DNA from: Octopus sinensis
Taxonomy: Eukaryota
Direction: 5' to 3'
NCBI RefSeq assembly: GCF_006345805.1
Contig: NC_043001.1
Span: 103,044,001-103,108,000 of the forward strand
Length of the DNA stretch: 64,000 nucleotides
Part shown: positions 1 to 63,685 of the stretch, in pieces
Layout of the letters: every line of letters begins with the position of its first letter
Position numbering within the stretch: the first letter of the stretch is position 1
The notes under the pieces: generated by a model
What the model saw: only the letters and a program-made list of their open reading frames with translations
Database searches by the model: none
Told to the model about the DNA's origin: nothing
Made by a program: the position numbers and the translations under genes

Positions 1-3000
1 GTTGCTTCCTGTTGTATTTTTGGCCTACACAAAATTGGTAAGTAAAATAAGGAATCACAAATGAGTTGATTGTAAGTATCATGCTTTAGATTCTTTAAAT
101 ATTTTCATATTTTATCGTTACATATAAATAAATTTTTCATACTTGTAAATAACTAGTTAGGTTCTGTATTTAAACCCTGCCAAGGTAAACTTTGCTCTCA
201 CTCTTCCAAGGTTGATAATAACCATTTCAGTTCTGAGGTTGATTTAATCAAAGAATCCCTTCCTCCAAAGTTCTAGCCCAAATTCTAAATTCTAATTATC
301 TTTTATCTCTTACCTGTTTCAGTCGTTGGACTGAGTCCGTCCTGGGGCACTGCCTTAAAGAATTTTTAAGTGAAATGAATCGACACCAGCACTGTTTTTT
401 AAGTGTGGTACTTGTTTTATTGGTCTCTTTCGTAAGAACCACTAAATTATGGGGATGTAGACGAAAAAACAATGGTGGTTAAGCGGTGGTGGGAGACAAA
501 CAAAAACACACACACACATATGTATGTATATAAATATATATATATATATATATCAATGGAAATAGGAGTTATGATGCCTGTGCCGGTGGCACATAAAAAG
601 TACTATCCGAACGTGGCTGATGCCAGCGCTGCCCCGACTGGCCTCTGTGCCGGTAAGACCATCCGAACGTTGCCAGCGCCGCCTTGGCTGGGTCCCGTGC
701 CGCTGGCACGTTAAAAGCTCGAACTGATTGTGACCGATGCCGGACCCCCCCGGCCCCTTGTGCAGGTGGCACGTAAAAAGCACCCACTCCACTCGCGGAG
801 TGGTTGGCGTTAGGAAGGGCATCCAGCCGTAGAAACTCTGCCAGATCAGACTGGAGCCTGGAGCGGCCCCTGGCTTCCCAGCACCCACTACACTCTCAGA
901 GTGGTTTGCATTAGGAAGGGCATCCAGCTGTCCTCAGTCAAAATCGTCCAACCTGTGCTAGCGCGGAAAACGGACGTTAAACGATGATGATGATGATATA
1001 TATATATATATAAACATAATAAATAACAGTAGGGCAATAAGAATTATATAAATAATTTATATAATTCTTATTACCCTAATGTTATTTATTATGTTTAAAT
1101 ATTCTTTGATAAATTTGTTTTAAATTTTACTGGCATTCCCTCTGTCGCCGTATATAATCTGCATCTGCGCAGTGGTTTGAAAAGTTAGGATATACATACA
1201 GCTAGTTTACATGTGGATCTAGTCGTGTGTATATTTGAATTCTAAAGGCTTCCTACTGATGAAAACTAGCCTCAGTAAATATTTTTTTACTAGAATTAGT
1301 TAGAAACCATGGTCTAGGAACTAAATAAGATGGTAAACGTTTTTAATTTTCATTCCTTTCGAGAATTTATCCCTAATTAGTGGTTTGAGTTTTCTACTGC
1401 TCTTTCTAGCACAAGGCTTTCCTATTTGGAAGCCTCTTGATGTGTTTTAATGTACACGATATTTATATATATATATATATAAAGAGAGAGAGAGAGAATA
1501 AAGTGTACGTACGCCGCTATATATTTATATAAAATACAAAATGGGACAAGAACGCAAAACATCCAGACAACTAGGTGATGAAAAAGGGGAGATAATAAAG
1601 TACTTGTGATTCCAAAAGGAAGGTGCACGTGCGTTTGTGTATGTGAGAGTGTGTAAGTATATGTGTGTGGGTAGGGGCTGGTGACTTTGACATGTGGATG
1701 TGTACATGTGTAAGTGTGTGTATCTGTAATGTGTGGGTATGTGGATGCTGGTAAGTGGTGAATGCTAGTGTGTGTGGATTGGTGTAGGTTCGTCTGGTGT
1801 GACGGTGTTGGGGTGTGGGTTTTGGGTGGAGATGTGGGGGTAGGGGTATATATGTGTGTGTGTGTATATATATATTAGTTTTTTGTTTTGCTTCCTTGTT
1901 TTTACAGTTGAATATCATATGCTGTGCTCTTGTCGGATCCTATGCGATAGTGTTTTCAATCGATATCCTCACATATGGCATCATTAGGTACATATTCCTG
2001 AATTCATTCCACCACATGATCTATGCCAACTTCAATAAAGCACTAGCAGTAACACCATTTCAGAAAAATGGTAAGTTTCCTGTTTTTCTTTTTCAATATT
2101 ATCACCACCCTCATCATTGTCCTTATCACTGCTATCATAAGACAGGAGCTAGAGCAGTAGGGAGAAGCTATTGATGGTCTATTCTCCATAGAAAGCAAAG
2201 GGCTAGGTTAGATAGAATTTGTCACAGCAGATGTTCTGTAGCCAGATGTTCTTCCTCTCACCAAGCCTCTTCTGTTTCCAACCAAGGTTATTTTTGCTGT
2301 TGGTCACACATTTTTCTCAGAAGAATAACTTTTCTTGTTTGATAGTGATGCTTCTTTACAGCCATCACATGATCTCAAGACAAGCTCACACACACACACA
2401 CACACACACACATAATAGGCTTCTTTCAGATTCTGTCTATAGCATCCACTAGGTTTTGGTCTGCCAGGGGCTATAGTCAGAAAGATTCATTGCCAGTGCT
2501 ACTGGACTGGCTCCTGTGCAGGTGGCACATAAAAAGCCCCATTTGAGCATGGCCATTGCCAGTACCGCCTGACTGGCCCTCATGCTAGTGGCATGTAAAA
2601 AGCACCCACTACACTCTTGAAGTGGTTGGCATTAGGAAGAGCATCCAGCTGTAGAAACTCTACCAGATCAAGATTGGAGCCTGGTGCAGCCATCTGGTTC
2701 GCCAGTCCTCAGTCAAACCGTCCAACCCATGCTAGCATGGAAAGTGGACGTTAAACGATGGTGATGATGATTATGACTTGTCCAAGGTGCTGCTGTGCAG
2801 TGGGACTGAACTTGAAACCATATGATTCGAAAATTAGCTTCTTAACCTCACAACTACAATCATCATCATCATCATGGATTAACGTCCGTTTTTCCATGCT
2901 GGCATGGATCGGTGCATGTAGCAATTGTCTTCCAGATTATTGTTCGCTGGAAACATTTAAGATGAGGAGCATCCAAGATGAGAGAAACCAACATTAATCT

Positions 3001-3779
3001 AAAGAATACAGCTTAGCATATAAGAGACAATATTGGTTTCAAATCTGGCACAAAGCCAGCAGTTTCAGGGGATGGGGTAAGTGGATTACATCAATCCCAG
3101 TATATAACTGGTACTCATTTTATCGACTTTGAAAGAATGAAAAGCAAAGTTGACCTTGGTGGAATTTGAACTCAGAATGTAAAGACCAATGAAATGACTA
3201 AGTATTCTGCCCAGCATGCTAATGGTTCTGCCAACTCGCTGCTCTAGAGACAATATCGTTAGACAATATCGTTAGTCAATGTTAGCTTAATATAAAATCA
3301 AATTCTCATTGCCTCTAAAATAATAAGTGTTACAGACTTGGTAGTTATAGGTTACGAGTTCAAACCCTAGGTTTGGAATATTACTTGAAGACGTCTGGGG
3401 AAAATGTCAATGAAAACATTGTGTTAAATGTTGTCCTGAATATCACAGACGAAAGAAGCACCAACACTTTTCCGTTCTCTTTCCAGATATGATTCTTGCT
3501 GGGCTTTGGGTTGGTTTCTTCGTTGCCGGTGTTATATTCCAGTTGTTCTCTGAAAAAGGAAGAGCTCCATTCCCACCAGCCAGTAACATTTTCTGCTGCC
3601 AAAATGGAAATGAACCCCGTCGACCAATAGTTGGTAACGAACGTGAACCTCTCCTACCAGATAATCCTCCAGTCGGCAGATATGGAACACTTGGAAGGGT
3701 TGTTCCTCCCACTCATCAACCATATCAGTCCTATACTGTTATTACAGGTTTTGCTAGTTCAGCTCCAGCACCAAAATGA
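1..3779 (+). CDS. TM7SF3: Transmembrane 7 superfamily member 3-like protein, last three coding exons (gene starts upstream of the window)
   Basis: Exons <1-37 (LLPVVFLAYTKL, donor GTAAGT at 38), 1908-2070 (tttacAG|LNIICCALVGSYAIVFSID...ALAVTPFQKN, donor GTAAGT) and 3487-3779 (ttccAG|DMILAGLWVGFFVAGVIFQLFSEKGRAPFPP...EREPLL...stop). Phases join in frame. The peptide resembles the recalled TM7SF3 C-terminal pattern LNILTCGVIGSYSVV...PFQTND...RGRPFFPP...ERTPLL. Confidence 0.85.
575..996 (+). mobile_element. RTE-LINE 3' tail copy with internal structured ~65-bp tandem units
   Basis: Same sequence as the 3' UTR following the RTE ORF at 34790-35315: GTGCCGGTGGCAC units, GGAAGGGCATCCAGC box and (GAT)n tail. 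Confidence 0.75.
1250..1320 (+). ncRNA. Type I hammerhead ribozyme-like motif
   Basis: Stem I TTCCTA(1250-55)/TAGGAA(1315-20); core CTGATGA 1256-62; stem II AACTA/TAGTT with AGTAAA/TTTACT extension; GAAA 1303-06; palindromic stem III ACCATGGT; GTC cleavage triplet. The first stem II pair is an A-A mismatch. Confidence 0.7.
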
Positions 3780-4080
3780 GCTCTGATATGTCCGGTTGTC
3801 TTTCAGAATCATCTGTTTTCTAGTTAATACCTTTTAGACTCTGTTGAAATGCATTTGAAAAGTGTCCTGTGTAAAACAGTGTTGTATGTATATGTACGGT
3901 GAGTGTGAGTATGTGTTTGTATGTGTTTGTGGATGCATGTGTTTGTATACACACACACACACACACACACACACTTGTGTATAAGAGGATAATTTTATAA
4001 CTTTGTTAAACTGAAGAGCAAAATTAAAAATAGGAGTGCTGCTGGAAGTGCTCAGGTGAGGCACTGAGGCAAAAGGAGAA

Positions 4081-4805
4081 ATAAATTGAAAGGTAAAATG
4101 GATAAACACTCCAATCAGTCAAAACAACTTTGTATCACTCCCAAATTACCAAAAATTGAAAATAAATATATATTTAAATAATAGGGCACCCAACGGTAAA
4201 ACCCAACAGTATAAAATATACACAAATAAATAGGAAGGGCATCCAGCTGTAGAAACTCTGCCAGATCACGATTGAAGCCTGGTGCAGCCATCTGGTTCCC
4301 CAGCCCTCAGTCATTCGTCATGATGATGATGATAATGAAAAGGTGATAAAACCCAAAAGGGTAATACGAGTGAAGTCAAATGAAGAAAAATATATGGAAT
4401 AAATTCATACGTAATAAAGATGGCTAAAAATTTAAGGCAATCAAGCTAAAATAATATAAATGTATAAAAATACAAGAGTATAAATATAAAAAATAAAATG
4501 TAAGGAAACCAGAACAGAGTCCATTGATGCCCATCTCTACGATTGTTTCAAATCATGCTGCTTCACATTGTTAATGTACAATCCATTAAGGAAATCCAAC
4601 AGCAACACCTTTTTATCAGGAGAAAACTTCACATTTCTGGTTATTTTATTATTCGTTGTTATGTGTATATTTCATACTGTCGGGTTTTACCATTGGATGC
4701 CCTATTATTTCAATATATATTTATATTCGTTTTTTTATAATTTGGGAATGATATAAAGTTGTTTTGACTGATTGGAGTGTTTATTCACCATACCTTTCAA
4801 TTTAT
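4081..4805. repeat. Long inverted repeat element (~144-bp arms 4081-4224 / 4662-4805) ending at (TA)n
   Basis: ATAAATTGAAAGGTA...ATATACACA is the near-exact reverse complement of TGTGTATAT...TACCTTTCAATTTAT. The interior holds an RTE-tail fragment and a degenerate hammerhead on the minus strand. Confidence 0.75.
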
Positions 4806-5202
4806 ATATGTATATATATATACTTTAAATGACCAGAAAATAGAGAGAATTTTAGATCAACAAACAAATTGGACCACATGTGTAGATTATTTTTTTAATA
4901 CTAAACATAACATTTCTGTGACAGGTTACGGCATGTTTAGTATTAAAAAATAATCTACACGTGTGGTCCGATTGATTTGAGGTTTTCTCTATTTTCTAAT
5001 TATTTAAATTTGATTCCTAATAAACTTTTGTTTATTCTGTTGTTACCTATACCCTATGAGCATAGTGTCCCTGCATACCCATGCCCAGAGACAACACAGG
5101 TAACTGATACCAATAGTAAATATGGATATTTTATCCCTTAGTTACTATAACCACTAACACTGCTTACTCTTTATATGTTTATATGTATGTGTATATATAT
5201 AT

Positions 5203-5240
<38 letters not shown>

Positions 5241-6446: not shown

Positions 6447-7813
6447 CACTGGTCAACAAAATGAAACTTTTTTCAATCATCAGAGTTGTTGATTGACTTT
6501 TCTGGGTTAATTTTTGATGCTGATTATGAATCTGAAGTCCGATTTCCTCTATCAGGTCACGTGTTCATGTTAATGATACCTGCTCTTTTAACTTATAGGA
6601 TACATAAAGCATGTCTATATAAAGTATATTGAATACAAGATACGATAATTTCATGGCTTTTTATTGTACGAAATTAAAATTATTGTGTACAAATAAGTTA
6701 GAATACGCTTAAATGCATAACAACTTAAAATCTTTGGGATTTGGACTTTCTATGGTGTTTTGTCTCGGGCTCATCCCTGTGTAACATCCAACAGTAGCCA
6801 GCTAACATTCCTGCATTCCAAAATCCTTGATATCGTTGTTCCATTGATGCAATATCTTGATGAAAGCATTCTCCTTGTTCATCAGACACTGCAAAAAAGT
6901 CCAGCCCATTGCAGCGTAGGAGTCTAGAAGACATCTCATTCCATTTCTAAACTCTAGAGATCTCTTGTTGCCTAGGAAATTTTCACAGAGCCATTTCAAG
7001 GATTACCAGGCTTAAGCTCAATCTCATCCAGTGCTGTGAGGAAGTGGTTGTCCTTCAGGAGTTCTTTTATCTGCAGACCTATAAATATGCCCTCCTTCAG
7101 TTTTGCCTCGGGGATTTTTGGAAATTTGGCCTTCACATATTCAAAACCTTTTGAGCTTTTCCTGGCAAGTGTCTTCACAAATTGTTTTATGAGGCCAAGC
7201 TTTATGTGAAGAGGGGGAAGAAGAACATTTTCTGGGTTTAAAAGTGGCTTACTCTGGACGCTATAAACTCCTGGCTTATATGATTTTTGCAAAGGCCACT
7301 CTGATTGCACATAGTGCTTGTTAGTTGCACGACTGTCCCATGGGCATAAAAAGGAACAATATTTCATGAACTCAGATTGCATTCCCATCAACATTCCAAT
7401 CACCTTCAAGTCTCCACATATTTTCCAGCTGTAGTTTGTATACTTTATGGCATTGAGGAGTACTTGCAGATTTTCATAACAATCCTTCATGTGCACTGAA
7501 TGTCCTATGGGAATGGATGGTTTCTTATTGCCGTTGTGTAGTAGTACTGCCTTGAGGCTTCTCTTAGATGAATCAATGAATAAGCGCCATTCAGCTGGAA
7601 CATGCTTTTGGAACAAACAGCAAAATAACTCATCAGTGTTATTACTGAAACAAAGTGGTCCAACAACAGAGAAGCATGAAGTCAGACCCCTATTTTTCTT
7701 CCTGAAATGAGTAATACAAACATCTTTCTTAAGCAGACACTTTTCTTGTAGGCGAGATGCTAATAGTTCAGCTTTATCCTTCGATAATGACAAGTCTCTA
7801 TCTAAATCATTAA
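6447..7813 (-). mobile_element. DNA transposon remnant with frameshifted, 5'-truncated transposase (CMC/Chapaev3-like)
   Basis: ORFs 6996-7793 and 6725-6934 carry LNDL.RDL.LSK.KAELL.SRL, WRLFIDSSKRSLKAVLLHNGN, PPLHIKLGL and EQGE.FHQDI..ME.RYQG.W...MLA.YCW. Terminus CACTGGTCAACAAA at 6447. Family assignment is from recalled motifs. Confidence 0.7.
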
Positions 7814-8032
7814 CCCTTTTACCATATTTCTTTTGAGATGCTCTGTGTTTCTTTCAATTAATTTTAAATATAACTAAGAATTTAGTAAAATAGATTGGTT
7901 ATCCTTAAGCTAGTGTTAGGAACATAAATTGTGACTAAGTTTTGGTGGAAGATTTTAATTCAGAACTTTTGAAAACAAGACATTTGTACTACAGAGCCAG
8001 AGGTGGTTTTAGCTGGGTTGGTATTGAAAGGG
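7814..8032. mobile_element. piggyBac-type MITE family 2 (219 bp)
   Basis: TTAA|CCCTTTTACCA...TGGTATTGAAAGGG|TTAA. The left part resembles the left end of the 20079-21118 element. Confidence 0.7.
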
Positions 8033-16564: not shown

Positions 16565-17072
16565 TATACAAAGGCAAATAAATGCTCACATCCTGTCATT
16601 CCTCAATACAGAGAAGAATTAAAGTAAAACGATTCTGCATTTGCTTTGGAATATGTTTACAATGAAGTTTATCCGAATACAGACAGGTTATTATTAATGA
16701 AAATTGTCTTCTTTGGAAACAAAAGTTAATGAGACATTTGTTACTCACAATATGCATTTCAAATTTAGGCACAGGGCCAGCAATTTCAGGGGCAGTCGAT
16801 TATATCAACCCCAGTACTCAACCGGTACTTCTTTTATCAACCCTGAAAGTCAAACATGGCAGAATTTGAAGAAATGTTGCTAAACTTTTTCTCCTGATGC
16901 AATAATGATTCTGCCAGCTCACCATTTTACTTGCTACTCACAAATATTAAGAGTTTTTATAAGCCATCTTATAAACATCTCATTGTAGTTATGTTTATGA
17001 AAACTGATCCATTCAGAAGTTCCAGGTTTACCAAAAGTAAAATTTGACAAAAATGAAAAAAAAAAAAAAAAA

Positions 17073-18041
17073 GAGAGCAACAACTTGTTTACCATTTTGG
17101 TTTCATAATAGGATTGGATTATAGAACTATAAAGGGATACAAATATATGTATGTGTGTAAACTATCAGTTTACCAGTTTTAAGTGAGGGCTGCCAAAGAT
17201 AATCAGATTGACACAATTTCTGATAATTTGTGTGTTTTTCCTTTGTACAACATAGTTTAAAAAAAGTTACCCACTTTTGCATGTTTGCATGAGTGGAACA
17301 GTTTATTGTCAGAGCAATTTCTTTAGTAGTTAGATGCACTTTTTACTACAAACCATTTCTCTTTGATGTAGGAGTGGTCGAACCTGTTTTGTATCCATTC
17401 AGACAGAGTTAATTACCCCATTTAGGAGCACAAAACAATAACAGTAGTAACATCTGAACTACATGGGCATGTGGTCATTAATCCACCATGTTAACCTCAC
17501 AACCATTTTACCTCAAGTTAGCAAATTAATAGAAAATTATGACAAAAAAAAAAAAAAAAAAAAAAAAAAGAGAGCAACAACTTGTTTACCATTTTGGTTT
17601 CATAATAGGATTGGATTATAGAACTATAAAGGGATACAAATATATGTATGTGTGTAAACTATCAGTTTACCAGTTTTAAGTGAGGGCTGCCAAAGATAAT
17701 CAGATTGACACAATTTCTGATAATTTGTGTGTTTTTTCCTTTGTACAACATAGTTTAAAAAAAGTTACCCACTTTTGCATGTTTGCATGAGTGGAACAGT
17801 TTATTGTCAGAGCAATTTCTTTAGTAGTTAGATGCACTTTTTACTACAAACCATTTCTCTTTGATGTAGGAGTGGTCGAACCTGTTTTGTATCCATTCAG
17901 ACAGAGTTAATTACCCCATTTAGGAGCACAAAACAATAACAGTAGTAACATCTGAACTACATGAGCATGTGGTCATTAATCCACCATGTTAACCTCACAA
18001 CCATTTTACCTCAAGTTAGCAAATTAATAGAAAATTATGAC
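17073..18041. repeat. Near-identical ~471-bp tandem duplication separated and bounded by poly-A tracts
   Basis: 17073-17543 and 17570-18041 differ by one T indel and one substitution by eye. Confidence 0.9.
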
Positions 18042-18157
18042 AAAAAAAAAAAAATGTTAGAAGTATAGCACTTGAGAGATGTATATAAATAACTATGAAA
18101 TGATATATTAAAATTTAGAACTATATAATCAGTGAAGGAAATGCTTCGGAGCCACAG

Positions 18158-19666
18158 CTAGCCTTTATGAGTCCTAGTATGTTTTTTCAGTGTATCTTGT
18201 CTGGAAAATTCTTTCCCACACTGATCACATTTGTATGGCTTTTCCCCAGTATGAGTTCTCATATGTACTTTAAGATTGAAGCTATTTGTGAACATTTTAG
18301 GACAAGCTTCACAATGGAACGGTTTATCGCCTGTATGAATGCGAATATGACGACGGAGCAGGCTTCGGTTGGTGAAGTTTTTAGGACAGTGGAGACATTT
18401 AAATAGACTCTCACCTGTATGACTTTTCAGGTGCAGCCCGAGAATATCCTGACGAGAAAATGTACGACTACAATAAACACAAGTGAACGGACGTTCCCCA
18501 GTGTGTGTTCTAATGTGACCCTGGAGGGTAGTCTTGTGTGAGAAGCATTTGCAACAATGGGGGCAGCTATAAGGACGTTCCCCACTGTGTACACGGCGAT
18601 GGACACGAAGTCGGGAACTGCTGATGAATGCAAGTTCACAGGTAGGGCACTGATAAGGTTTCTCTCCCGTATGGCGCCGTAGATGGACATTAAGGTGAGA
18701 ACTGACGGCAAATGTTCGGTCGCAGTAAGCGCATTCGTAAGGTCTTTCACCAGTGTGGGTGCGTGTATGCTCTTGCAGAGTGTCCGGTCTAGCAAATGTG
18801 CGTGGACAGTGGTTACAATGATAAGGACGTTCTCCGGTGTGTGTACGGGTATGTATCTTGAGGTTTGAGTTGGTGGTGAAAGTTTTAGCACAGAAGGTGC
18901 ATTGGTAGGGCCTCTCTCCGCTATGTGATCGTATATGGATCTTCAACCTGAAGCCATATGCAAATGTCTTCAAGCAATGAATGCACTGATAAGGCTGTTC
19001 TGATTTATGAGAACGAAGATGAGTCGTTAAATCAGACTTACACGAGAACACACGATTACACTGATCACATCTGGGCAAATTACTTGTTACACTGTCCTCG
19101 CAATCTTTGTTGGATTCCATTTGGTTAGCCAGCTGATCGCTATAATCTTCATTGCTATTCGAAGCACCCTTATTATTGATGGCTTTTTCTTGGTAGCTTT
19201 GATCTTTGTTAAATTTACTAGTGTTGCCAGCATAATTAGGAATTGATCCAGCATTAGTATCCAAATTCTGAGCAAGATCAACATCAAGATTAAAATCAAG
19301 ACCATGAGTTGGACTTGGATCAATATCTTGGTTGCCTGAAAGATCGGAAAGCGATTGATTTTGTGACGATAGATTCGACGGTTTTGCAATGTGTGATTTC
19401 AAATGTATTCTTAGACTGGTTGTGCTGGGGAAAACCTCCCCACAATAAAGACACACGCTTCTGTTGTTGTTGTTGTTGCTGTTGTTGGTAGCCATATTTC
19501 TGTCCATGTCATGATTCATGTCTCTGTACAAGTTTCGAGGGAGCAGATTAGAGTTGGTGTAGTCTGTGAGATGCTGAGATCTTTGGTTGTCTCCATACAG
19601 AGATAATGGATAGTTTATGTTGCTACCGTCAGGCAGAGTCTGGTTCATATTATAATTATTCGCCAT
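18158..19666 (-). CDS. C2H2 zinc-finger protein (1 isolated + 11 tandem fingers, ~502 aa), single coding exon
   Basis: Intact ORF with CxxC-x12-HxxxH repeats and TGE(R/K)PY linkers. ATG at 19666 in Kozak context CACCATGG. Polypyrimidine+AG acceptor at 19805 implies an upstream 5' UTR exon. Asn-rich N-terminus; no KRAB, BTB or ZAD domain recognised. Confidence 0.9.
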   Translation of the reverse strand: MANNYNMNQTLPDGSNINYPLSLYGDNQRSQHLTDYTNSNLLPRNLYRDMNHDMDRNMATNNSNNNNNRSVCLYCGEVFPSTTSLRIHLKSHIAKPSNLSSQNQSLSDLSGNQDIDPSPTHGLDFNLDVDLAQNLDTNAGSIPNYAGNTSKFNKDQSYQEKAINNKGASNSNEDYSDQLANQMESNKDCEDSVTSNLPRCDQCNRVFSCKSDLTTHLRSHKSEQPYQCIHCLKTFAYGFRLKIHIRSHSGERPYQCTFCAKTFTTNSNLKIHTRTHTGERPYHCNHCPRTFARPDTLQEHTRTHTGERPYECAYCDRTFAVSSHLNVHLRRHTGEKPYQCPTCELAFISSSRLRVHRRVHSGERPYSCPHCCKCFSHKTTLQGHIRTHTGERPFTCVYCSRTFSRQDILGLHLKSHTGESLFKCLHCPKNFTNRSLLRRHIRIHTGDKPFHCEACPKMFTNSFNLKVHMRTHTGEKPYKCDQCGKEFSRQDTLKKHTRTHKG

Positions 19667-20078
19667 GGTGTTTGTCACTCGAATTTTATTCCTCAGTTTC
19701 TTAAGAAAGGTTAAATTTCCAAAGCACTGTTGAATGTGTGAAGTTCTCAGGTGAGAAATGGAAGTAGAAAGAATTCTTTGAACCAACAGGAAATTCTTAT
19801 TTTACTAAAGAAAACAAAACAAAAAAAAAGTCATTTAGTCCAGAGCTTCATCATAATATTGTGCAACTACATATAACAATAATAATAAAAAAAAGGATCA
19901 ACATTAATAATAAACATTCTGAAGAACTCTCAATATATTTTCTCTGAATCTGCATTAAATATCCCAAAATTGCCTCAGATAGTTTGAATGTATTTTTAAA
20001 AAATCGGAACTAAAAGCTGGTAATGGAAGCTGAAATGTGAACTTTTGCTATTAGAAAACCAATTCTTACTGTATTTAA

Positions 20079-27860: not shown

Positions 27861-28736
27861 ATATTTCAATAAATATTTTTTAAGGTATCATTTAAATCTT
27901 TGGCACCTGTGCCGGTGGCATGTGTAAAAAGATTCGAGCGAGGTCATTGCCAGTACCACGTGACTGGCACCCACTACACTCACGGAGTGGTTGGTGTTAG
28001 GAAGGGCATCCAGCCGTAGAAACTCTGCCAGATCAAGATTGGAGCCTAGTGCAGCCATCTGGTTCGCCAGCCCTTAGTCAAAATCATCCAACCCATGCTA
28101 GCATGGAAAGCAGACGTTAAGCGATGATGATGATGATGATGATGATAACTCTTTTATGTAAATTTTTACCTGAGGTTAATTGAATTCAATAATTTTCTTT
28201 TACTGTTGTATTGATTGATCTTCTTTAAAGTTTGTTATGAAATTCTTTTGTCCCTGCCTTATTGAGCTGACTAATCCAAGTTTGAGAAGTCTCTTTCATT
28301 CAGTCAAGAAGCCACTGCCATCTCAGTCTATGTGTGGAAAATATGTTCATTTGCTTCATGCAAACATGGTTGAAAATTGCAAGAGTTGCCTGGCTGATCA
28401 AAATGTAGTTTTAGTGGTTGATAGTTCCAAGAGAGAATTTTCTCCTACTATTGTCTGATGCTGCTCGGTATATGGTAGCGGCTGGAGAATCATTGCAAGT
28501 TATGTACCCTAAGCTCTTCCTTGTAACCTGCTTCTCCCACCTACTGCACAACAGGGCTCTAAAAATAAAGGCTTTCTATTCAGCAGACGATTGCCTGATT
28601 GCCAATGTCAAGGCTGCCACTGTAAAAGGCAGACATTGTGACTAGGTGGGGCAGCTGGTTGGATGCCTGGGATTACTATGCCAGGAACCTTGCAGTGAGC
28701 TTTGAGGACAAAAGCATTTTGGGTTAGAGTTAGGGT

Positions 28737-28774
<38 letters not shown>

Positions 28775-28778
<4 letters not shown>

Positions 28779-29402
28779 GCCCTCTATATAATATAAATAA
28801 ATAAATTCAAGTGGAAAAAATTTACAGATTATTTTCTCATATGAGGTTTTTCATGCTAACTACTTGATAATTTCTTATGAAGATTTTATCCTATTTTTAA
28901 ATTATAAATTTCACTGGAATAATTCAATACTGAATTTTTATTCCGAATAAGCACATTGTTACCGAAATACAATTCGAAAAAGCCCGCCATTTACATAGAT
29001 GTATAAGGGGTGAACAGTTCTATATGCTACGGTGGATACGATGGTTGTTCGTCTGGTATGTTGATTTTGTTCATTCATTATAAATCTTGAATCACACTGT
29101 CACTGATGAGTAAGGGACGCAGCCACTGCGTTGATTACGAAATCACTGGTGATCTACAGCTAAATTCTGTTTTTAAATGACTTGCTTCGAGACTTGCATT
29201 CGGTACGATATATTTATTTTGGTAGTTTTGACTTTAAGAGTCCCTCCTAGCAAGCGGCATTTATGTGTAATAATGCCCTCTATATAATATAAATAAATAT
29301 ATTCAAGTGGAAAAAATTTACAAATTTTTTTCTCTTATGAAGTTTTTCACGCTAACTACTTGATAATTTCTTATGAAGATTTTATCCTATTTTAAAATTA
29401 TA
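28775..29402 (+). mobile_element. Non-coding element with 132-bp terminal direct repeats (496-bp period) in (TA)n, containing a hammerhead
   Basis: 28775-28906 is repeated at 29271-29402; (TA)n on both sides. Confidence 0.75.
29097..29159 (+). ncRNA. Type I hammerhead ribozyme-like motif
   Basis: Stem I CTGT(C)A/TACAG; core CTGATGA 29103-09; stem II GTAA/TTAC plus ACGCAG/CTGCGT; GAAA 29139-42; stem III TCAC/GTGA; ATC triplet with cleavage predicted after 29154. Confidence 0.75.
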
Positions 29403-31433
29403 TATATATATATATAAGAATTTTCTGCGTAATAAGATAAAAAACCAAGGCTGTGTAGATATTAGAGCATTTATAGATAGATAGGTCTTACAGCTGTTTC
29501 TAGGATATTAATTAATATCCCTTCATTGGAGAAGGTGCACTTATTCAGCATTACCTGACACCTTTGGGCCTCAATGGCACCATTATCTCTTATATATGAA
29601 TGAAAGAAGCTGTGAATTCATGAAATCAGGACAAACCTTACCCAAATCTGTTCAAACTACTAAAAGACTTGATTTTGAAAGTTGAGTCAGCAGCCTTCAC
29701 CATCTTCAGTGCTTACAAAAGCCTTAAAGAATTGAAAGTCAACAAAGACCTATGTTGCAGCATGAATAATATTAATTTCGGATTCAATTAAAACCAAATC
29801 AATTTGATAATTCAGCTAATGAACTGCAGAGATTCACCTGTGGAATATGTAAATCTGATACAATGCCAAGCAACATCATTTACAGTCGAATGCATTTTTT
29901 CAATGCTGAAAAATTCCTTGCAAAGACAGGAATTTTAAGGCATTATATAAAACAAAAAAAAAAAACATCCACTTCCCTCTCAGAGTGGCTGGCATTAGGA
30001 AGGGCATCCAGCTGTAGAAATATTGCCAAATCTGATGATAACCAGGGGCAGCCCCCTGGCTTACCAATTTTCAGTCAAACAATCCAACCCATATCTGCAT
30101 GGAAAGCAGATGTTAAATGATAATGATGATGATGATATATTGTGCTATAATAAATTTCCACAATAACCATTTAAAAAAAAAATTGTTTTGATAATAATCA
30201 TTATATTTTAAAGTAATCAAAACTCTAGAGAACTCCATAATGTTTATGGATTTATTAATTAAGGTTAAAAAAAGTTGCCCTACAAATTCCCTTTTTTGTC
30301 CTTGCTGACATCTTACTAATTAGTTTCTCACCTTCACTCATTCTTCTCACTAAGTGACCAAACATGATACATCATCATCATGATCATCGTTTAATGTTCG
30401 CTTTCCATGCTGGCATGGGTTGGATGGTTTGACAGGGCTTGTAAGCTGGGAGGCTGCACCAGGCTCCAATCTGATCTGGTAAAGTTTCTACAGCTGGATG
30501 CCTTTCCCAATGCCGACCACTCTGAGAGTGTAGTGGGTGCTTTTTATGTGCCACTGGCATGGGAACCAATCAGGGGGCACTGACATTGACCATGTTCAGA
30601 TGGTGCTTTTTACGTGCCAATCAGGTGGTACTGTCATCAGCCATGACAACAACTTCACTTTCCTCAACAGGTCTTCAGAAGTGCAGTTTATTGCCCACAA
30701 TCTTCATATTTCACCCCTTTTCCCTTTCACACATTTCGAAGGTCACCTGTTTCTATTTTACTCAGTTTGTTTAATATATTTCTTTATGAATGTCTTTCAC
30801 AATTAAGAAAGTCTTAAATTTTTGGCATTTATTCTTTTACTTGTTTCAGTCATTTGACTGCGGCCAGGCAGGAGCACCACCTTTAGTCGAAGAAATCAAC
30901 ACTAGGACTTATTCTTTGTAAGCCTAGTAGTTATTCTATCGATCTCTTTTGCTGAACTGCTAAGTTACGGGGACGTAAACACACCGACATCAGTTGTCAA
31001 GTGATGGTGATGGGACAAACATATACATATACGATGGGCTTCTTTCAGTTTCTGTCTACCAAATCCACTCACAAGGCTTTTGTTGGCCTGTGGCTACAGT
31101 AGAAGAAACTTGCTCAATGTGCCAGGCAGTAGGATTGAACTTGGAACCATGTGGTTGTGAAGCAAGCTTCTTACAACACAGCCATGATCACATATATATA
31201 TATATCCCTCTCTCTCGGTGAGGCACAAGCACCTACACACACATATATACATGTGGCAGTAACTTCCGCCGACCAAATTCAATCACAAAGCTTTGGTCGG
31301 CCCGGGGCTATAGCAGAAGACACTTGCCCAGGGTGCCATGCAGTGGGACTGAACCTGAAACCATGTAGCTGGGAAGCAAGCTTTCTAACCACACAGCCTT
31401 CAACCCATGCCAGCATGGAAAGCAGACATTAAA

Positions 31434-33970: not shown

Positions 33971-36900
33971 ACAAAGTGAAGTTGTAAGGTACCGTATGAG
34001 TGGAAATATATATGAAAGAAGGTTTGAAAATGCAATTTTAAAGATGTTTATTCATTTGACCGGTTTCACTTTTTTAGAAAAAGATTGTCAAAAGTAAAAT
34101 GTAAAGCTTTGTATAAGCTTTGTTGTGTTAAGTACTGGTTGTCACAAAATATTACAATACATTTATATACATTCTTTGATAATAATAAGAAAATGTTAAA
34201 AACAGTTTACAAGAAAGTATCTAAGAAAATATTCAACAAAATATATTAAGAGTTCAATAAAAATCATGTTTTTTTGGTAGTATTTATATACACAGAAGGG
34301 CAAAGTTTAGAAAGCTCCTACCCCTACTGGCGACAAAGGGTCTCTCACTCAGAGTGAAAGGTAGATTGTATGATGCATGTGTGCGAACTGCCATGCTTCA
34401 CGGTAGTGAAACATGGGCCGTGACTGCAGAGGACATGCGTAGACTTGAAAGAAATGAAGCTAGCATGATCCGCTGGATGTGTAATGTCAGTGTGCATGCA
34501 CGACAGAGTGTAAGCACCCTGAGAGAAATGCTGGACATAAGAAGCATCAGATGTGGTGTGCAAGAGCGACGCTTGCGATGGTATGGTCATGTACTGCGGA
34601 TGGATGAGGAGAGATGTGTGAAGAAGTGCCACTCCCAAACAGTTGAAGGAATCAGGGGGAGAGGTAGACCCAGGAAGACATGGGATGAGGTAGTCAAGCA
34701 TGACCTCAGAGCATTGGGCCTCACTGAGGCAATGGCGAAGGACCGAGATCTCTGGAGATGTGCTGTGACTGCAAAGACCCAGGCTGCTTCCGGCACCAGG
34801 TCCGCATAGCCCCTGCCCATTCAAAGTACCTTGGATCCCAGAACATCTTGCTGTGCTTGAGGAGACCTGTTGAGTCAAGTGCAGGTTCATGAACATCGAA
34901 ACAAATATCAATGGAAATAGTAGTTGTGATACCTGTGCCGGTGGCACATAAAAAGCACCATCCGAACGTGGCCGATGCCAACGCCGCCTCGACTGGCTTC
35001 TGTCCCGGTGGTACATAAAAAGCACCATCCGAACGTGGCCGATGCCAGCGCCGCCTTGGCTGGCTTCCGTACCGGTGGCATGTTAAAAGCACCAACCGAT
35101 CGTGGCTGATGCCAGACTCCCCTGGCACCTGTGCCGGTAACACGTAAAAAGCACCCACTACACTCGCGGAGTGGTTGGCGTTAGGAAGGGCATCCAGCTG
35201 TAGAAACACTGCCAGATCAGACTGGAGCCTGGAGCAGCCCCTGGCTTCCCAGATCCCGGTCGAATCGTCCAACCCGTGCTAGCGCGGAAAACGGACGTTA
35301 AACGATGATGATGAAGAGATATATTTAAGAGTTTACAAAGAATTTGAGATGAACCAACCTGTTTTCTTAGCATTTTATTATTTTGTGTGTAGCTAAGGGT
35401 TGTTTGCTATTTTAAGGGACAGTTTCTTTCTTAGACTGACATTGTAAATAAATAAATAAATAAAACCAATACTAACCAAGAGAAGCCAAACATCGAGCAA
35501 TGCAGTCCTGTATTTCACCGTAATCCTTAGTGTGGTGTGCAAGTAGTCTCTTGCGTAGATCAGCGCAGAGACGGAATGTAGCGAGGGCATCTGAGGAATA
35601 GAGATATTGTTGTTAGAGACTGTTTGAGGCAAGCAATTAGACTTTGCAGACAATTGTGGGATTGCAGGTATTGGGATGCTATGATAAAGTCGGTGAGAAT
35701 TTAAACAGAGTAAAACATATAAATATATAACCATTGTGTACGTGAAGATATCTGTGTATACGAAAGCACGCACACATACACACAAATATATAAACACATA
35801 CATATAAATACACACATATATATATACACATATATCAATACACATATACATGACGGGTTTTTCATAGTTTCCATCTACTGGAAACGCCATGAAGTGAGGA
35901 TCATAGTGAGGGATTTCATCAGGTCATCGCAACTATGGAAAGAAGATACCAAGGACGATGGGATACTGCTTTGATGGGAGATTATAAATGGTCTCTAGTC
36001 AGAAGAGATGAAGGTATACACTCCAGAAAATCTCGATCATCAAAGCACTTCTCATCTTAAGAAAAGAGTTATCAAGGCATTTACAGTGCAGAGTTTTATT
36101 GCTTCTTTTTGTTCTAACTAATATTATACTTCCTAAATACCTTTCAATATATGAAAAAGTACTAAATGTTGTGTAATTATCCTTACAATACTAGAATAGA
36201 TTGAACCAACAAAGTGCTGTAGAGAAAAGTTACAAATATAACAAGCAAATATGAAATTAGGAATTGATTCATTTGACTAAAAATTCTTCAATGTGGTGCC
36301 CCAGCATGGCCACGGTCTAATGACTGAAACAAGAGACAAAAGATAAAAGATCTACCTTCAATATTATTTGATTCCAGTAAAGTCAGAGCCTTCTTGAAGT
36401 TATTTGCTTCACCAAGTAAAGCTGACTTTGTGTGCTCCTTGGCATTTTCACATGGTAACTGCGAGAAACATTGATAGCAGTCTTCGTCCTGGAGAGTCAA
36501 GATATCAAAAAATTATTTCAATGAGTCAAGAGTCAAGTACATCAACATCAAAATAAATATCAAATGGAAATTGTAGTTGTGATACCTGTGCCGGTGGCAC
36601 ATAAAAAGTACCATCCAAACGTGATCAATGCCAGTACCACCTTGACTGGCTTCTGTGTCGGTGCCATGTAAAAAGTACCAACCAATCGTGGCTGTTGCCA
36701 ACCTCGTCTGGCACCTGTACCGGTGGCATGTAAAAAAACACCCACCACACTCACAGAGTGGTTGGCATTAGGAAGGGCATCCAGCTGTAGAAACACTGCC
36801 AGATCAGACTGGAGCCTGGTGCAGCCTCCTGGCTTCCCAGACTCCAGTCGAACCATTCAACCCATGCTAGCATGGAAAATGGACGTTAAACAATGATGAT

Positions 36901-54301: not shown

Positions 54302-54354
54302 TGGGCCGGTGTAAACCCAAGTGGATTCCTTGTTAATATTAAGGCTACGATTAC

Positions 54355-56221: not shown

Positions 56222-56393
56222 CTAGGTTAGGATGAGGGTTAAAGTTTAGGGTTCGAGTTTAAGTTTAAGATTTAAGATTAGAGTTAGGGTTCGGGGTTAT
56301 GTTTGAGGTTTAGGGTTGGGGTTTAGGGTTAGGGTAAATGTTAAGGTTAGGATTTAGGGTTTAGGATTAGGGTTGGAATTAGATTAGAGTTAG
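56222..56393 (+). repeat. Degenerate (TTAGGG)-like array
   Basis: GGTTAG/TTAGGG/TTTAGGG variants over about 170 bp. Confidence 0.7.
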
Positions 56394-58330: not shown

Positions 58331-59841
58331 ATGCAGTGGAGGTAAACCAGCATATGCTGTCGGCCCCCACTGCTGATATCGGGGGTTGCGTTTTATGCCT
58401 TAACCCGAGCATAGGATGGGGCTCGCCTCTTTGAGCTGGGAAATGAATGGTATGTGTCTTGTTGTGGTTACCCGCTCCAAAAAAATGGGAAATAGGCCTG
58501 GGTGTATATAAAAAAATGTATAAATTATTTATTTCTTCTGAGAAAAACAAAACAATTTACTTCATGAAAATAGCGTAAAACTGTTCTCGAGTATTTTAGT
58601 AGATTTCGCTTTTAGTACATAAGTATTTTTTTTTCTCTTAGGTCCAAGTCGGCTCTGAACGAGCAGATTTGAGATCAACGGTGCTGCAAGTGTCATCCTA
58701 TATTTTCTTCAAACAACAATATAATTCAGTCTCATTCCATAAAAACAAAACAAAGCAAACGGTACGGATGTAATTTGAGTGAGATTTGACAACCAATTTT
58801 AGCACCTCAAGAGACTATCTTTGGTTTGACAGTATTTTAATAATCGAAAAATGTAATGATTTTAACATCCTTTCGGTTGGAGGCGCCTAGAAATCGTTAC
58901 AAACTTTTGTGCATGTTGAGCAGTTAGCAAACCCAGATTTAGCCTTTTGAGCGATTGCATTAAAAATTACAGCGGCCTCACATTTTGTCGGAGCAAGACG
59001 AAAACTTTGGTTCAAACGTTTTGAGGAATGGACGGACGTCTTGAGACTGAAGTAAAAAAAAAAAAAACTAAATGAAAAGCAAAGAAACGAGAAAAACATA
59101 CTTCATCTAGCACTGGAGACCAGGGCCGACCCTGGGCAAGCTGAATTTCGGCATGTCGTGGAAATTTCTTTGTTTTCATCACGTTCACCCAAGCGTCCCC
59201 TAGCACATGGTACCCTGGGCGACTGCCCGAGTTGCCGGTACCTTGAGCTGGCCCAGCTCGAGACATGTGTCAGTAGCCACGTTTGCAAAGGTTTTACTTC
59301 AAATGGAGGCAATGGTCACCAACAGAAATTGATCTAGCATCGCAAAGAATTATAGAAACTTTGTGTGATTTTGTGAACGTGCCATCCAACTTCTCAAAAG
59401 CGACAATGTACAGGATGTGAATTCTACCATCGTTCAACAGGTACCAGTTCAAACCAGATGATTTAAGCCAGCTTATGCTGTAGTCGATGGGAACGATGCT
59501 ACCGACTTTCCAACATAGTTTCTCAATTTGCTTTGCTGACCTCTTACCAACCTCAAAGAATCTTAAAATCTTAAGCAAGGAAGAAAACCCATCCTGTGCA
59601 CAGTGTAGAGCAACTCTTTCTACACAGAATCACATTTTCCGACTGATGACGTAGAGTAGAAGAGAAAAGTTGTACAGGGAGACAGCAATCCTCACGGAAA
59701 TTGCCAAGTGGTGGGACCTGCGGAAGTTGAGACCAACAAACAGCCAAATTCGAAATAGCAAAAAGACAAAATTAAATACAGGAAGGAACACATATAAAAG
59801 CCCTCAATTAATTATTGAGAATAGTGGGTTGGGCAACATAA

Positions 59842-60235
59842 TCTCTCTCTATATAAAGCTGAAGTTGTCTGTGTATGGCAGGTTTGGTAGCCTTCAATTA
59901 ACACTATCTCCTCCGAGACCCTGCGGCGCAAGTTGACCAAAATTGAGAGTATGATAGAAGAAGGCTTGCTCTTTCTTCCGTAGAAGATAAAATTCAAATT
60001 GGACCATGTTAACACCAAAAATTATTTACATCAAAAAGGTCTCATTTTTTTCTATGAAAATCCCTATTTTTTACGATATTTTGACTGCTGTGTCGCTATT
60101 TTTCGGTGTATTTCAACCAGAAAAATGTTCACTTAATGAGAATAATAAGCTACATAATACAAAATTTTTACTTTTCAAAAATTCCAATTCTAAAGGATCG
60201 AAACAAACCCGAGCAACGCCGCGCGATACTGCTAG
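59842..60235 (+). mobile_element. Non-autonomous Helitron (394 bp)
   Basis: A|TC 5' end, GC-rich subterminal CCCGAGCAACGCCGCG, CTAG|T 3' end, no TSD. Confidence 0.7.
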
Positions 60236-60544
60236 TATACATTAAAAGATAAACCGAACTCGATATCGGTGTCAATCCCAATTTCCTTCAAAATGACTAA
60301 TTTATTTGTTGAAGGAAAAAACGACGTCGTTGAGTGTTAGCAAGAAATTATATTTCGCCAGGATTTGATCAAAGGTCTGTTCGATAAAGTTCAAAGGTAT
60401 TTGATTCTTAATGGATGATGATAAAGCTCCTGAGACAAAAATAGCTGTGCTTCTTTGTATCAAGCCTCTGACAGAGTGCTGCAAATGGATCTGGTGGGTA
60501 CACTGCTCTGACTTGGCATAACACTTCTTCTTCTTCAATGTAGG

Positions 60545-60790
60545 GGCACAAAATAGTTACTTGTGGTTGAACTTGCAGTGCACTGGGGGGGAAGGCTTGA
60601 TATTTCTTACCAACTGAAGAAAGCTAAGTACAAGGGCTTAAGTGAGGATCTTGTCAAAGGATGGCATGCAGAATCATTTTCCATTGAAGTCCTCTGCTGC
60701 GGTTTCCCAGCGAAATCATTGCCCTATTTTGAGGCAGAAGTTGTGTTTAGACCCCAAACAACTGAGAAAATCCACTGAGGAAGATAGGTC
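60545..60790 (+). mobile_element. RLE-type non-LTR retrotransposon remnant (R2/HERO-like endonuclease tail)
   Basis: VELAVHW..RLDISYQLKKAKY..L....GW.....IEV.C.GF resembles the ELTVPWE...KKAKY...IEVGCRGF restriction-like endonuclease motif. Confidence 0.6.
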
Positions 60791-60917
60791 TGCTAGCTGA
60801 GACAAGGTCAAGGTAGTTGTGTTTTACAAGAGAGCACAGATAGAACCCTTTCGGTAGGTGAAGGGTCAGTCTCCACATGCAGATTAAGGGGTAAAAAGCT
60901 TGTGAGAAAGAAGAGAA

Positions 60918-60992
<75 letters not shown>

Positions 60993-61129
60993 TACTAACA
61001 AAGAGACAATATTAGGAGAGGCGCTTGCAACATGTTTCAGTTGCTCCCGCAGGTTCTGCACGGAGCAAAAGATCTCTAATGTGTAGTCCACTTATAAAAA
61101 ATAATCCCCAACTCGAATGGAATTACAGA

Positions 61130-63683
61130 ACAGAAAAGAAGACAAGCTTTCAAGGACATCACAACAAAAACACGAGATAAAAAAACCCGTGACACCATTA
61201 GTGTCAGTATTAGTACGTATTAGTATGTATAAGGGTGTGTGTGTGTGTGTGTGTATGAGAGAGTATTAGTGCGTATGAGAGGTCTGAACGTGTGTATATA
61301 TAGGGTTGGTGTATGTATTAGTATGTATTAGTTGGTGTATGTATTAGTATGGCACATCATATATGATGTGATGTGTAAAGTCGTGTGGTGTAGTGTGGAG
61401 AGAGGAGAAGAGGGGGAGGGGGGGGAGAGGGGGGAGGAGAGGAGGGGGAGGGGGAGAGAGAGGAGGGGAGAAGGAAGTGGATGAGGAGGGGAGGAGGAAG
61501 GAGGAAAGAGGGAGGGGGGAGTGAGGGAGCAGAGGGAAGGGGAAGAGGGAAGGAGGGAGGGAGAAAGAGGTAAGAAGGGAAGGGAGTAGGGGTGAAAGGA
61601 TGAAGGACTGAAGAAGTAGGGGTCGGGGGGAAGGTAGGTGAGGAGGGGGAGAGGGGGTTAGATGAGGAGGGCGGAGAGAGTTGAGAACAAATGGCGTATA
61701 AGAGCGAAGAGAGAAGATTAATTCCTGTTCACGGCGCAAACGGGAATCCGGATGGCCTCTGTGTAAGGACAAACCGAACACAGATAGGTGTTGCAAGGAG
61801 TGACCGGTGGAGCGGAAATGGCGAGAGACCGGTGTGTCGTTCGCAAGGTGGATGTCTCGAAGGTGTTCCGCGAACCGGTCAGCCAAGCGGCGTCCCGTTT
61901 GTCCGATGTACAAGGAATGGCAGAGAGAGCAAGAGACGCAATAGATAATATTGCTGGAGGTGCAGGTGAAGGAGTGGATGATGGGATAGGGTCGATGATG
62001 GGTGCTAGTGAGGAGGGTGGGTGGGAGAGGTAAGGGCAAGTGCGGCAACGTGGGGCCGGACAGGGGAACGAGCGGGTTGGGAGGTAGGGTCAGGGAAGGA
62101 GCTATGGACCAAAATGTCTCGAAGGTTGTGGGCTCGTTTGAAAGAGGGGAGGGGTCGGTTAGGGAAGAAGTGTGAAGTGGACGGGTCGGACTGGAGATGA
62201 CGGAAAGCTCGAAGAATGGTGCGTTGGGAAGTTGGGTCGTGGGTGTGGTAAGTGAGGGGAAAAGGGAGGCGGGAGACTACAGGCGGGGTTCGGGGAGAGA
62301 GAGCAGATACACGTCCACGGACCGTGCTCTGGCAAGGGCGGTGTGGATAGTGGTGAGGGGGTATCCACGTAGGGTGAAGTGGTGAGCCATACGTTAGACT
62401 GAGTCTCAAAGTGATGGTCGTCACTACAGAGCCTACGTAGACGGAGGAATTGGGAATAGGGGATGGAAAGCTTGGTGTGTTCTGGGGGGAGGAAGAGAAG
62501 TTGAGGTATGAGTGTGAGTCTGTGTGTTTGTAGTGAATGGAGGTGGTAAGAGTGGAGTGAAGAATGCTACCCGAAATGTCGAGGAAGGAGACAGAGGTGT
62601 TGGAGATAGTGGAAGTGAAGTGAGGGCTGGATGGAAAGATTGGACGAAAGAGAGGAAGGAATCTAGATGTTCACGGGAGAGTGAGGTGGCACCGATAATG
62701 TCGTCAATGTAACGACCATATAGTTCAGGAGTGGGACCTGTGAAATTAGAGAATATTTGGGCCTCAACATAGCCAACGAACAGTTCGCGATAGTTGGGGC
62801 CCATTCGCGTTCCCATGGCCACTCCCGAGATCTGATGGTAGAACTCGCCCGCGAACGAGAAGCAGTTCAGAGTAAGGACAAGTTCGGCCAGACGAATGAG
62901 TGTGGAGGTGTCAGGTACAGGGTTGGAGCGGAGGTCAAGAAAGTGTCGAAGGGCCTGCAGTCCTTCGTGTGAGGGATAACAGTATAGAGGCTTTGGATGT
63001 CCATAGTAAAAAGGATTTTGGAGGAGCCGGGAGGAAAGGAGAAAGAGTTGAAAAGCCGGAGAGCATGGTTGGTATCGTGGATGTGGGAGGGAAGAGATGC
63101 CACTAGGGGGGCAAGGACACGTCGAGGTATTTAGAGATGAGCTCCGTGGGGCAGTTACAGGCGGAGACGATGGGGCGTGCCAGGGTTGTTGGGTTGGTGG
63201 ATTTTGGGAGGAGTAAATGGTGGGGGTACGTGGGTTTCGCACAATTAGGTTGGATGCGGTTGTGGGGGAGACGGGAGGACGAGATGAGGTCGCGGACAGT
63301 AGAGGATACCGTCTGTTGGTAGCTACGTGTGGGGTTAGAGGGCAGAGGGGAGTAGAAGGAGGTGTCATTGAGTTGGCGGAAAGCCTCGGCCCTATAGAGG
63401 TCCGCGCGCCACACCACTACAGCTCCACCCTTGTCAGCCGGTTTGATGAAATGTCAGCGCGCTGTTGGAGGGAACGAAGAGCCAGAGCTCAGCCGGGGAG
63501 ATGTTGAGGCGGCGTTGGCGCCTGGAGAAGTTGAACCGCTCCAATGCACGCTGACAAGCGCCCGCGAAAAGATCCACTGCTAGGAACTGGCCAGGGGCAG
63601 GCGTCCACGGGGATGGTCGGCGGCCAGGCCAGTGAAGCAGTCCTCTTCGTTGGGTGTGGGTGGCGAGTCGTGGTAATGCGCAC

Positions 63684-63685
<2 letters not shown>
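61130..63685 (-). mobile_element. Penelope-like retroelement (RT + GIY-YIG endonuclease, probably Neptune-type), 5'-truncated and frameshifted
   Basis: IKPADKGGAVVVW; RPIVSAC.CPTE.IS; TMDIQSLYTVIPH; GVAMGTRMGP.Y..LFVG; YGRYIDDI; FTCTSSNIIYC..C..C..LYIGQTGRRLADRFAEH; REQELIF.L.S..P..LN. The 5' end abuts (TA)n at 63686. Confidence 0.9.

Follow-up and report, generated by a model that had tools for sequence, protein, structure and literature searches.

The stretch analysed here, hereafter the window, comprises 64,000 nucleotides (nt) of the Octopus sinensis genome (GCF_006345805.1, contig NC_043001.1, positions 103044001-103108000). It holds five hammerhead-ribozyme folds, each in its own non-coding cassette (A to E), and a fragment of a Penelope-like element (PLE), F, with reverse transcriptase (RT) and GIY-YIG endonuclease (EN) regions. 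Very probably, the five cassettes are 3' ends of PLEs that bear a hammerhead and lie at (TA)n tracts. Three of them (B, D and E) would be stubs of coding families, and the other two, A and C, gene-less elements that were likely copied in trans. The features are listed below, where pLTR stands for the pseudo-long terminal repeat of PLEs, SINE for short interspersed element and UTR for untranslated region.

1011-1458, forward strand: cassette A, a gene-less PLE-type unit of about 464 nt, head-to-tail
1006-1053 and 1055-1102, forward strand: the 48-nt 5' inverted arms of A; (TA)n flanks A at 996-1012 and 1459-1481
1250-1320, forward strand: A hammerhead; intact core CUGAUGA at 1256-1262, GUC site at 1312-1314 with predicted cleavage nucleotide 1314, stem II flanked at its base by one unpaired A on either side, helix III palindromic
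3981-4805, reverse strand: cassette B, a probable pLTR stub; 5' inverted piece 4649-4805 adjoining (TA)n, 3' end meeting (TG)n, and a SINE fragment interrupting it around 4231-4338
4534-4625, reverse strand: B hammerhead, a decayed copy with G8A and a disrupted helix III palindrome
28723-28776, forward strand: left edge of the C/D block, with telomere-like hexamers, (TG)n and (TA)16; missing from 15 paralogs that span the site
28774-29398, forward strand: cassette C, a gene-less PLE-type unit of about 496 nt with a 136-nt terminal direct repeat and (TA)n on both sides
29095-29160, forward strand: C hammerhead; intact core from 29103, AUC site ending at 29154 (predicted cleavage), closing pair G10.1-C11.1, palindromic helix III
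29417-29597, reverse strand: cassette D, a probable pLTR stub, whose tail faces that of C across a shared (TA)9; inverted piece 29537-29597
about 29485-29535, reverse strand: D hammerhead; core CCAAUGA in this copy, CCGAUGA in the family
33971-34297, reverse strand: cassette E, a probable pLTR stub with its 3' end at (TA)13
about 34051-34100, reverse strand: E hammerhead, with the U3-A8 core UUGACAA
about 61195-63685, reverse strand: F, a frameshifted Neptune-like PLE fragment with RT, a C-X4-C-X2-C linker and GIY-YIG, and a C/T- and AC-rich 3' UTR; 5'-truncated at the (TA)n at 63686, and without a 3' pLTR or hammerhead

Each of the five folds is a minimal type I hammerhead of a PLE, and each comes from a different high-copy family. 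First-look searches of the 2.72-Gb assembly returned 2028 candidates for A, 201 for B, 2096 for C, 3112 for D and 2119 for E; these and the other candidate numbers below are search matches, not copy numbers. The 30 best-matching loci per cassette were taken for study (148 of 150 were anchored), and they keep the same layout within each family, namely a short stem I, the core, a long stem II, GAAA and a palindromic helix III. The cassettes are mutually unrelated, sharing only short cross-matches (best E 0.007). A preliminary description of the window, made from its letters alone, had proposed both the five folds and their mutual dissimilarity; both hold, the folds being backed by the family-wide layout and by descriptor matches above shuffled sequence.

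In the window, the CUGAUGA core is intact in A and C alone. Among the A copies, this word is found in 19/30 and CUGACGA in 9/30, so that 28/30 fit CUGANGA. The core of C is canonical in 17/30 copies and CCGAUGA (U4C) in 9/30; that of B is CUGAUGA in 16/29 and CUGAAGA in 1/29. D carries the U4C word CCGAUGA in 17/29 copies, CCAAUGA in 7/29 and CUGAUGA in 2/29, and 28 of the 30 E copies have UUGACAA. Because of these family-wide core words, E is read as a U3-A8 covariant, and the window copies of B and D as decayed. The U3-A8 covariant is present in Schistosoma PLEs, with Cercyon as the example (PMC4209133), and a hammerhead core of this kind has been described as active in vitro (PMC3088659). 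Helix III is a perfect palindrome in 24/30 copies of A, 28/29 of D, 21/30 of E and at least 12/29 of B, and consists of 5 bp about a 2-nt centre in 20/30 copies of C. Stem II closes with G10.1-C11.1 and no extra base in 24/30 copies of C, with A-U in B and with U.U in E, while in A and D there is an unpaired A on both sides. Compensatory changes in stem II were found in A (AU in 14 copies, GC in 13) and at two pairs in C (AU in 17, GC in 10; CG in 20, UA in 7).

An Rfam scan of the window at E<=1 gave 41 matches, to microsatellite-like microRNA and small nucleolar RNA models, and none to a hammerhead family, and a strict hammerhead descriptor recovered 0/5 folds. When a mismatch or bulge was allowed, two of the five were recovered (A with score 15, C with score 14), the best score in 12 shuffles being 11. 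A descriptor tuned to, and fitted on, the cassette families themselves found three motifs in the window (A, C and D) against a mean of 0.05 over 20 shuffles, and eight in a genome sample of 60 evenly spaced 10-kb stretches (600 kb) against 0, 1 and 0 in three shuffles, which bears out the excess over shuffled sequence on which the preliminary description had staked its proposal. With this descriptor, the density is one per 75 kb in the sample and one per 21 kb in the window (P about 0.055 for at least three motifs in the window, by hand calculation), and a similarity search with families A-F found nine loci in the 600 kb and five in the window. The window sits at the rich end of genomic hammerhead density, and the rate of one per 13 kb given in the preliminary description overstates that of the genome. 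The five best sample hammerheads are one member of D, one of E, one of a sister family of A, and two of families absent from the window; all five have (TA)5 within 300 nt downstream, against a background of 16%. In random stretches (L302, L308 and L273), further hammerhead families were seen, each within 240 nt of (TA)5; that of L302 is again a U3-A8 variant but has no relation to E.

Longer copies of B, D and E carry RT and GIY-YIG upstream, and the three cassettes therefore appear to be 5'-truncated pLTR stubs of three autonomous RT and GIY-YIG PLE families. Upstream of B, loci L071 and L074 reach a GIY-YIG domain that is 34-38% identical to that of D, and L232 reaches the RT thumb and core. 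Copies of D, searched for with its upstream part, extend 1.2-1.7 kb upstream into a GIY-YIG with a Cys-rich leader. In L227, EN and then RT motifs follow upstream in the same sense, and EN also lies upstream of D in L198, L206, L209, L197, L199 and L222; longer homologs of D's EN were not found, which is weak evidence. For E, two direct repeats 4352 nt apart bracket an RT in L183, the arrangement expected of pLTRs. This E-linked RT is followed by a GIY-YIG like that of F in 18/25 copies, and E sequence lies within 1.5 kb of it in 7/25, in three of them downstream and in the same sense (L344, L351 and L358). The idea of an endonuclease-less E family was discarded, the EN loss being private to L183, and the pieces of open reading frame (ORF) past the second pLTR of L183 were assigned to other insertions. 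The RT and EN motifs of the E parent, D and B lie in broken frames. In the parents of B, D and E, as in F, the architecture is that of endonuclease-bearing (EN+) PLEs, with RT followed by a C-terminal GIY-YIG that has an upstream Cys motif; by their motifs, we take B and D to be Nematis-like and E and F Neptune-like. The preliminary description had regarded all cassettes as non-autonomous and had noted that their novelty would fall away if all were PLE pLTR fragments already annotated: the former is likely to hold for the gene-less units A and C, and the latter outcome, annotation aside, is reached for B, D and E with their upstream RT and GIY-YIG, not for A and C.

Two neighbours of these cassettes may be mentioned. 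At 4824-5008, directly beside the (TA)n of B, stands an almost perfect inverted repeat that spans about 185 nt and is MITE-like (miniature inverted-repeat transposable element), and a 3' fragment of an RTE-like long interspersed element, at 34298-34830 on the forward strand, adjoins the 5' end of E. Elsewhere in the genome, L191:5661-9448 holds a large block of near-perfect inverted and tandem repeats with a 2.3-kb palindrome, 97-99% alike.

Family F, the window's own PLE, has 3886 candidates, the best 30 of them at 95-98% identity, and some copies hold open RT-EN frames (L161, L155). The F proteins match Pfam RVT_1 above the cut-off and GIY-YIG at E 0.005, below the cut-off, and a Pfam search with the broken PLE frames of the window gave no family. 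The preliminary description was right that this element has a junction with (TA)n at 63686, but the junction is a 5' truncation, since 28/29 other F copies run on upstream. The F pLTR was seen in L164 and L177, and full copies carry their own hammerhead about 110 nt before the TA end (L154-L182). Its core is CUGUUGA (A6U), with a GUU site, in 27/27 copies with the motif, A6 being a conserved base of the hammerhead core. Low activity is given for an A6C hammerhead in PMC3088659, in which A6U is not mentioned. The F pLTR and hammerhead match none of cassettes A-E, and the few cassette matches within F loci were unshared flank insertions; the window copy, too, has no sequence in common with any cassette, and mobilisation of the cassettes by this PLE is not supported, as it shares a pLTR with none of them. 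A hammerhead-like stretch at 60992-61215 was ruled out as F's pLTR, having two candidates genome-wide.

Cassettes A and C differ from B, D and E in being closed, gene-less units. The start of the unit is reached in 25/30 A copies, with the unit's own tail directly upstream in 22/25, and for C the tail stands directly upstream in 20/23 copies that reach the start; of the six exceptions, five retain short remnants of the tail and the sixth has an inverted piece. The unit repeats itself with a period of 449-479 nt in A and 480-500 nt in C. No common ORF was found next to A or C in 30 copies each, and PLE ORF matches in the C loci L041 and L055 come from insertions into the flanks that other copies do not share. 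The sister family of A (1760 candidates; 72-76% identity to A) shows the same period, closed unit and two ends in 30 loci; these yielded no coding parent, an EN match in L329 being 1.6 kb off and unshared. A and C are thus likely non-autonomous, and because they show PLE marks, with 5' inversions in 11/30 copies each and TA ends, PLE enzymes are their likely movers. In none of 60 A and C loci, read with 1.5-kb flanks, does a direct tandem contain two whole hammerheads; where a second copy occurs, it is partial or inverted. Both units fold on themselves more stably than shuffled sequence (z -2.7 for A and -4.9 for C, 25 shuffles).

The genome sample contains 1.05 (TA)5+ tracts per kb, and adjacency to (TA)n therefore needed a control. 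Element spans were defined by natural reference copies, and on this basis (TA)4 was found at the 3' end in 26/30 copies of A, 27/30 of C, 20/29 of D, 25/30 of E and 9/29 of B, and at the 5' end in 10, 14, 17, 7 and 10 copies of A, C, D, E and B, respectively, against 1736/22143 (7.8%) at random flank positions; the test window includes 8 nt of the element, which often end in TTAT. In F, 27/30 copies keep the 3' end motif, and 27/27 run into AT repeats. The (TA)n adjacency claimed in the preliminary description thus stands as an enrichment at 3' ends but not for the window copy of B, whose 3' end (about 3981) meets a short ATAC and (TG)n tract and whose (TA)n lies at the 5' inverted end. The terminal duplications it listed are all present, inverted in A (48 nt), B (arms of 144 nt) and D (29537-29597) and direct in C (136 nt), and 5' inversions recur in 11/29 copies of B, 19/29 of D and 4/30 of E. 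Measured from the cleavage site, 3' ends cluster near +150 and +250 in A, +135 and +245 in C, and +72 and +215 in D; those of B are ragged, near +355 and +470, and E has one main end near +90. The ends finish in TTAT-like motifs. The paired clusters recall the two internal priming sites of an anole PLE (PMC11167929), with a longer interval.

Pre-existing TA tracts are used as targets. Empty-site screens found a paralog for 4/178 and 7/206 insertions, and four of the seven, dependent on a single weak paralog, were left out of the count. The insertions L012, L058 and L071 interrupt a TA tract inside a SINE; at this position TA is present in 70/84, 72/87 and 69/83 paralogs, respectively. At the C/D site, the two cassettes share one (TA)n tract (29399-29416), and their block splits an old DNA-transposon-like repeat (28150-28722 and 29598-29936), which has 27 candidates, a TRWGSW-like frame and paralogs at 70-89% identity. 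About 2.7 telomere-like hexamers stand at the start of the block; as a recurrent junction feature they were dismissed, since apart from the window they occurred in a single unrelated place. In contigs from three other DNA runs, probably paralogs, 28680 is linked to 29710 by an undefined filler. At this one site, the C/D tract appears to have arrived with, or just before, the elements. Different PLE families often crowd into a single TA tract or into adjacent ones (L161, L163, L170, L173, L199, L224, L035), with pieces of B, D and E next to F copies, F ends next to D copies or a D-like end after C, much as C and D lie together in the window.

The predicted mechanism is that already known for PLEs and would begin with the endonuclease nicking TA-rich DNA. 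The nick may prime reverse transcription at one of two internal RNA sites, each ending in a TTAT-like stretch able to pair with a TA tract; synthesis would mostly halt early, and second-strand events would leave a piece at the 5' end, either inverted or in direct repeat. With priming so close to the hammerhead, most copies would be short ribozyme-bearing stubs. Predicted hammerhead cleavage may be weak, or occur as dimers or with the assistance of proteins, and the lone window copies of the B and D hammerheads are likely dead.

Several other explanations have to be weighed. That the folds are chance products of AT-rich DNA beside common microsatellites might be suggested by the lack of an Rfam hammerhead match, the three deviating cores in the window and the frequency of TA tracts, but we consider this refuted and of negligible probability, given the shuffle controls, family-wide conservation, covariation, the pLTR position downstream of RT and EN, and 3' TA rates up to ten times background. 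It is also improbable that all five are dedicated non-autonomous elements that depend on PLE enzymes for movement, for example the enzymes of the 61195-63685 element. Most copies in every family are indeed short and non-coding, A, C and A's sister are closed gene-less units, and short B, D and E stubs could be re-copied; however, the longer B, D and E copies with upstream RT and EN and ragged 5' ends refute it for these families, in which no head-to-tail gene-less junction was seen among the copies examined, and the F pLTR and hammerhead match no cassette. The converse, that A and C are also pLTR stubs of unsampled coding PLEs and nothing here is non-autonomous, is unlikely. Thirty copies per family were read, and coding copies of B were rare (3/29); against this, upstream of a stub from a coding element one would expect 3' UTR sequence, and the starts of A and C are preceded by their own tails. 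Slightly better placed, though still doubtful, is the idea that (TA)n is at least partly produced by insertion, through reiterative copying of the terminal TA motif or nick repair. In its favour are the C/D site, where 15/19 host-repeat paralogs span the insertion point, none with (TA)n, and the block is bridged in the contigs from three DNA runs; the TTAT-like ends; and the kinship of PLE RTs with telomerase (PMC8557442). Against it, the TA tract was already in the host SINE at three well-supported empty sites, the case for tract creation comes from one site, and the telomere-like hexamers and (TG)n there, unseen at other copies, suggest that a separate repair may have laid the tract first. 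A combined version, in which A, its sister and C are long-lived, dispersed hammerhead mini-PLEs that outlasted, or did not require, a sequence-matched parent, and PLE integration both uses (TA)n and can create it, as at the C/D site, we likewise hold to be improbable.

The preferred reading, that of PLE 3' ends with coding parents for B, D and E and likely trans-copying of A and C, has its own difficulties. The TA tract was not an old target at the C/D site (0/15 spanning paralogs), and the 3' (TA)4 rate of B is modest. Just 3/29 copies of B extend to the ORF, and the compensatory changes in stem II lie between subfamilies and amount to one to three events. The descriptor used on the 600 kb, tuned on these families, misses B and E in the window, and the clade names come from motifs, not a tree. 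An autonomous parent of A or C was not found in 30 copies each; the 30 best copies per family are a small, similarity-biased sample from which rare ORF-bearing A or C copies could escape, and we infer the trans-mobilisation of A and C by PLE enzymes solely from shared anatomy.

Much of this biology is known, as PLE minimal hammerheads, (TA)n preference and non-autonomous PLEs are already in print for other animals. Cervera and de la Pena 2014 (PMC4209133) described minimal hammerhead ribozymes (min-HHRs) in the pLTRs of metazoan PLEs, along with single motifs by the thousand that derive from truncated PLEs; the available portion of that paper names no mollusc and makes no link to (TA)n. The octopus motifs resemble those it describes in being type I with a short helix I, long helix II and palindromic helix III, in the many families per genome, the mostly single motifs and the U3-A8 covariant, and, for B, D, E and F, in the pLTR position 3' of the RT/GIY-YIG ORF, A and C being without an ORF. 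They depart from that description in that A and D lack the G10.1-C11.1 pair beside GAAA and E has U.U there, in the family-wide U4C of D and in the A6U of F (CUGUUGA in 27/27). Where that account has an extra base 5' of stem II, the octopus families vary, with an unpaired A on both sides in A and D and no extra base in C. For EN+ PLEs, Craig et al. 2021 (PMC8557442) describe (TA)n as the preferred target, microsatellite bias, 5' inversions, tails and non-autonomous PLEs. The likeness to Neptune and Nematis in that account extends to RT with a C-terminal GIY-YIG, the Cys linker, pLTRs, the 5' inverted truncated copy, the optional tail and the (TA)n target, although the 3' end points here are about 100-140 nt apart, compared with a tail of 30-40 bp.

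Gene-less hammerhead repeats have been described as PLE dependants (PMC7229834; Li et al. 2026, bioRxiv 10.64898/2026.07.22.740005), and the non-LTR (long terminal repeat) retrozymes of these two sources are proposed there to be PLE-derived and PLE-mobilised. A and C are like them in being gene-less, low-GC, head-to-tail and self-folding with a type I hammerhead. They are unlike retrozymes in being dispersed copies of 1-1.5 units at (TA)n, with PLE-style inversions and a minimal, not canonical, hammerhead; their units are also longer than the 170-400 nt retrozyme circles (PMC7229834). Similarly, they resemble MRC1 of Chlamys (PMC8557442) as gene-less, pLTR-forming, head-to-tail, microsatellite-biased PLE dependants, but the Chlamys PLEs are described as mostly without hammerheads and have 3' ends resembling those of autonomous partners, whereas no partner of A and C was found. 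A and C therefore resemble non-LTR retrozymes and non-autonomous PLEs, yet, with no two whole hammerheads in direct tandem at any of the 60 loci, they fall outside the tandem-array definition in the preprint of 2026. Dimers of PLE hammerheads are attributed to Lunse et al. in a review (PMC6765202). Penelope families of O. vulgaris were counted in PMC13282606, in the main text of which hammerhead, ribozyme and retrozyme are absent, and we found no account of octopus or cephalopod PLE hammerheads in the main texts searched, with supplements, Dfam and Repbase lying outside the search. The families are new for the taxon as far as the literature was searched, and do not constitute a new system.

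For annotation, the gain would be roughly 36,000 descriptor-passing hammerheads genome-wide (scaled by hand from eight in 600 kb, with wide error), borne by many PLE families, gene-less ones included. An in vitro study doubted the role of cleavage in PLE mobility (PMC11167929), and the core variants U4C, U3-A8 and A6U, the last in a young open-ORF family, offer a natural panel for the question of cleavage versus mobility. If insertion does create TA tracts, a telomerase-related RT would be tied to the birth of microsatellites, and PLEs would be one source of the one-per-kb TA microsatellites, feeding further insertions.

Three further features lie elsewhere in the window. A 285-amino-acid (aa) frame at 6996-7853 on the reverse strand resembles a DNA transposase fragment, with no Pfam match. 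At 17049-18054, two 498-nt tandem copies, 99% alike and each starting from a poly(A) run, could be an assembly duplication. A 547-aa open frame (18158-19801, reverse strand) encodes about ten C2H2 zinc fingers and is likely an exon of a host gene.

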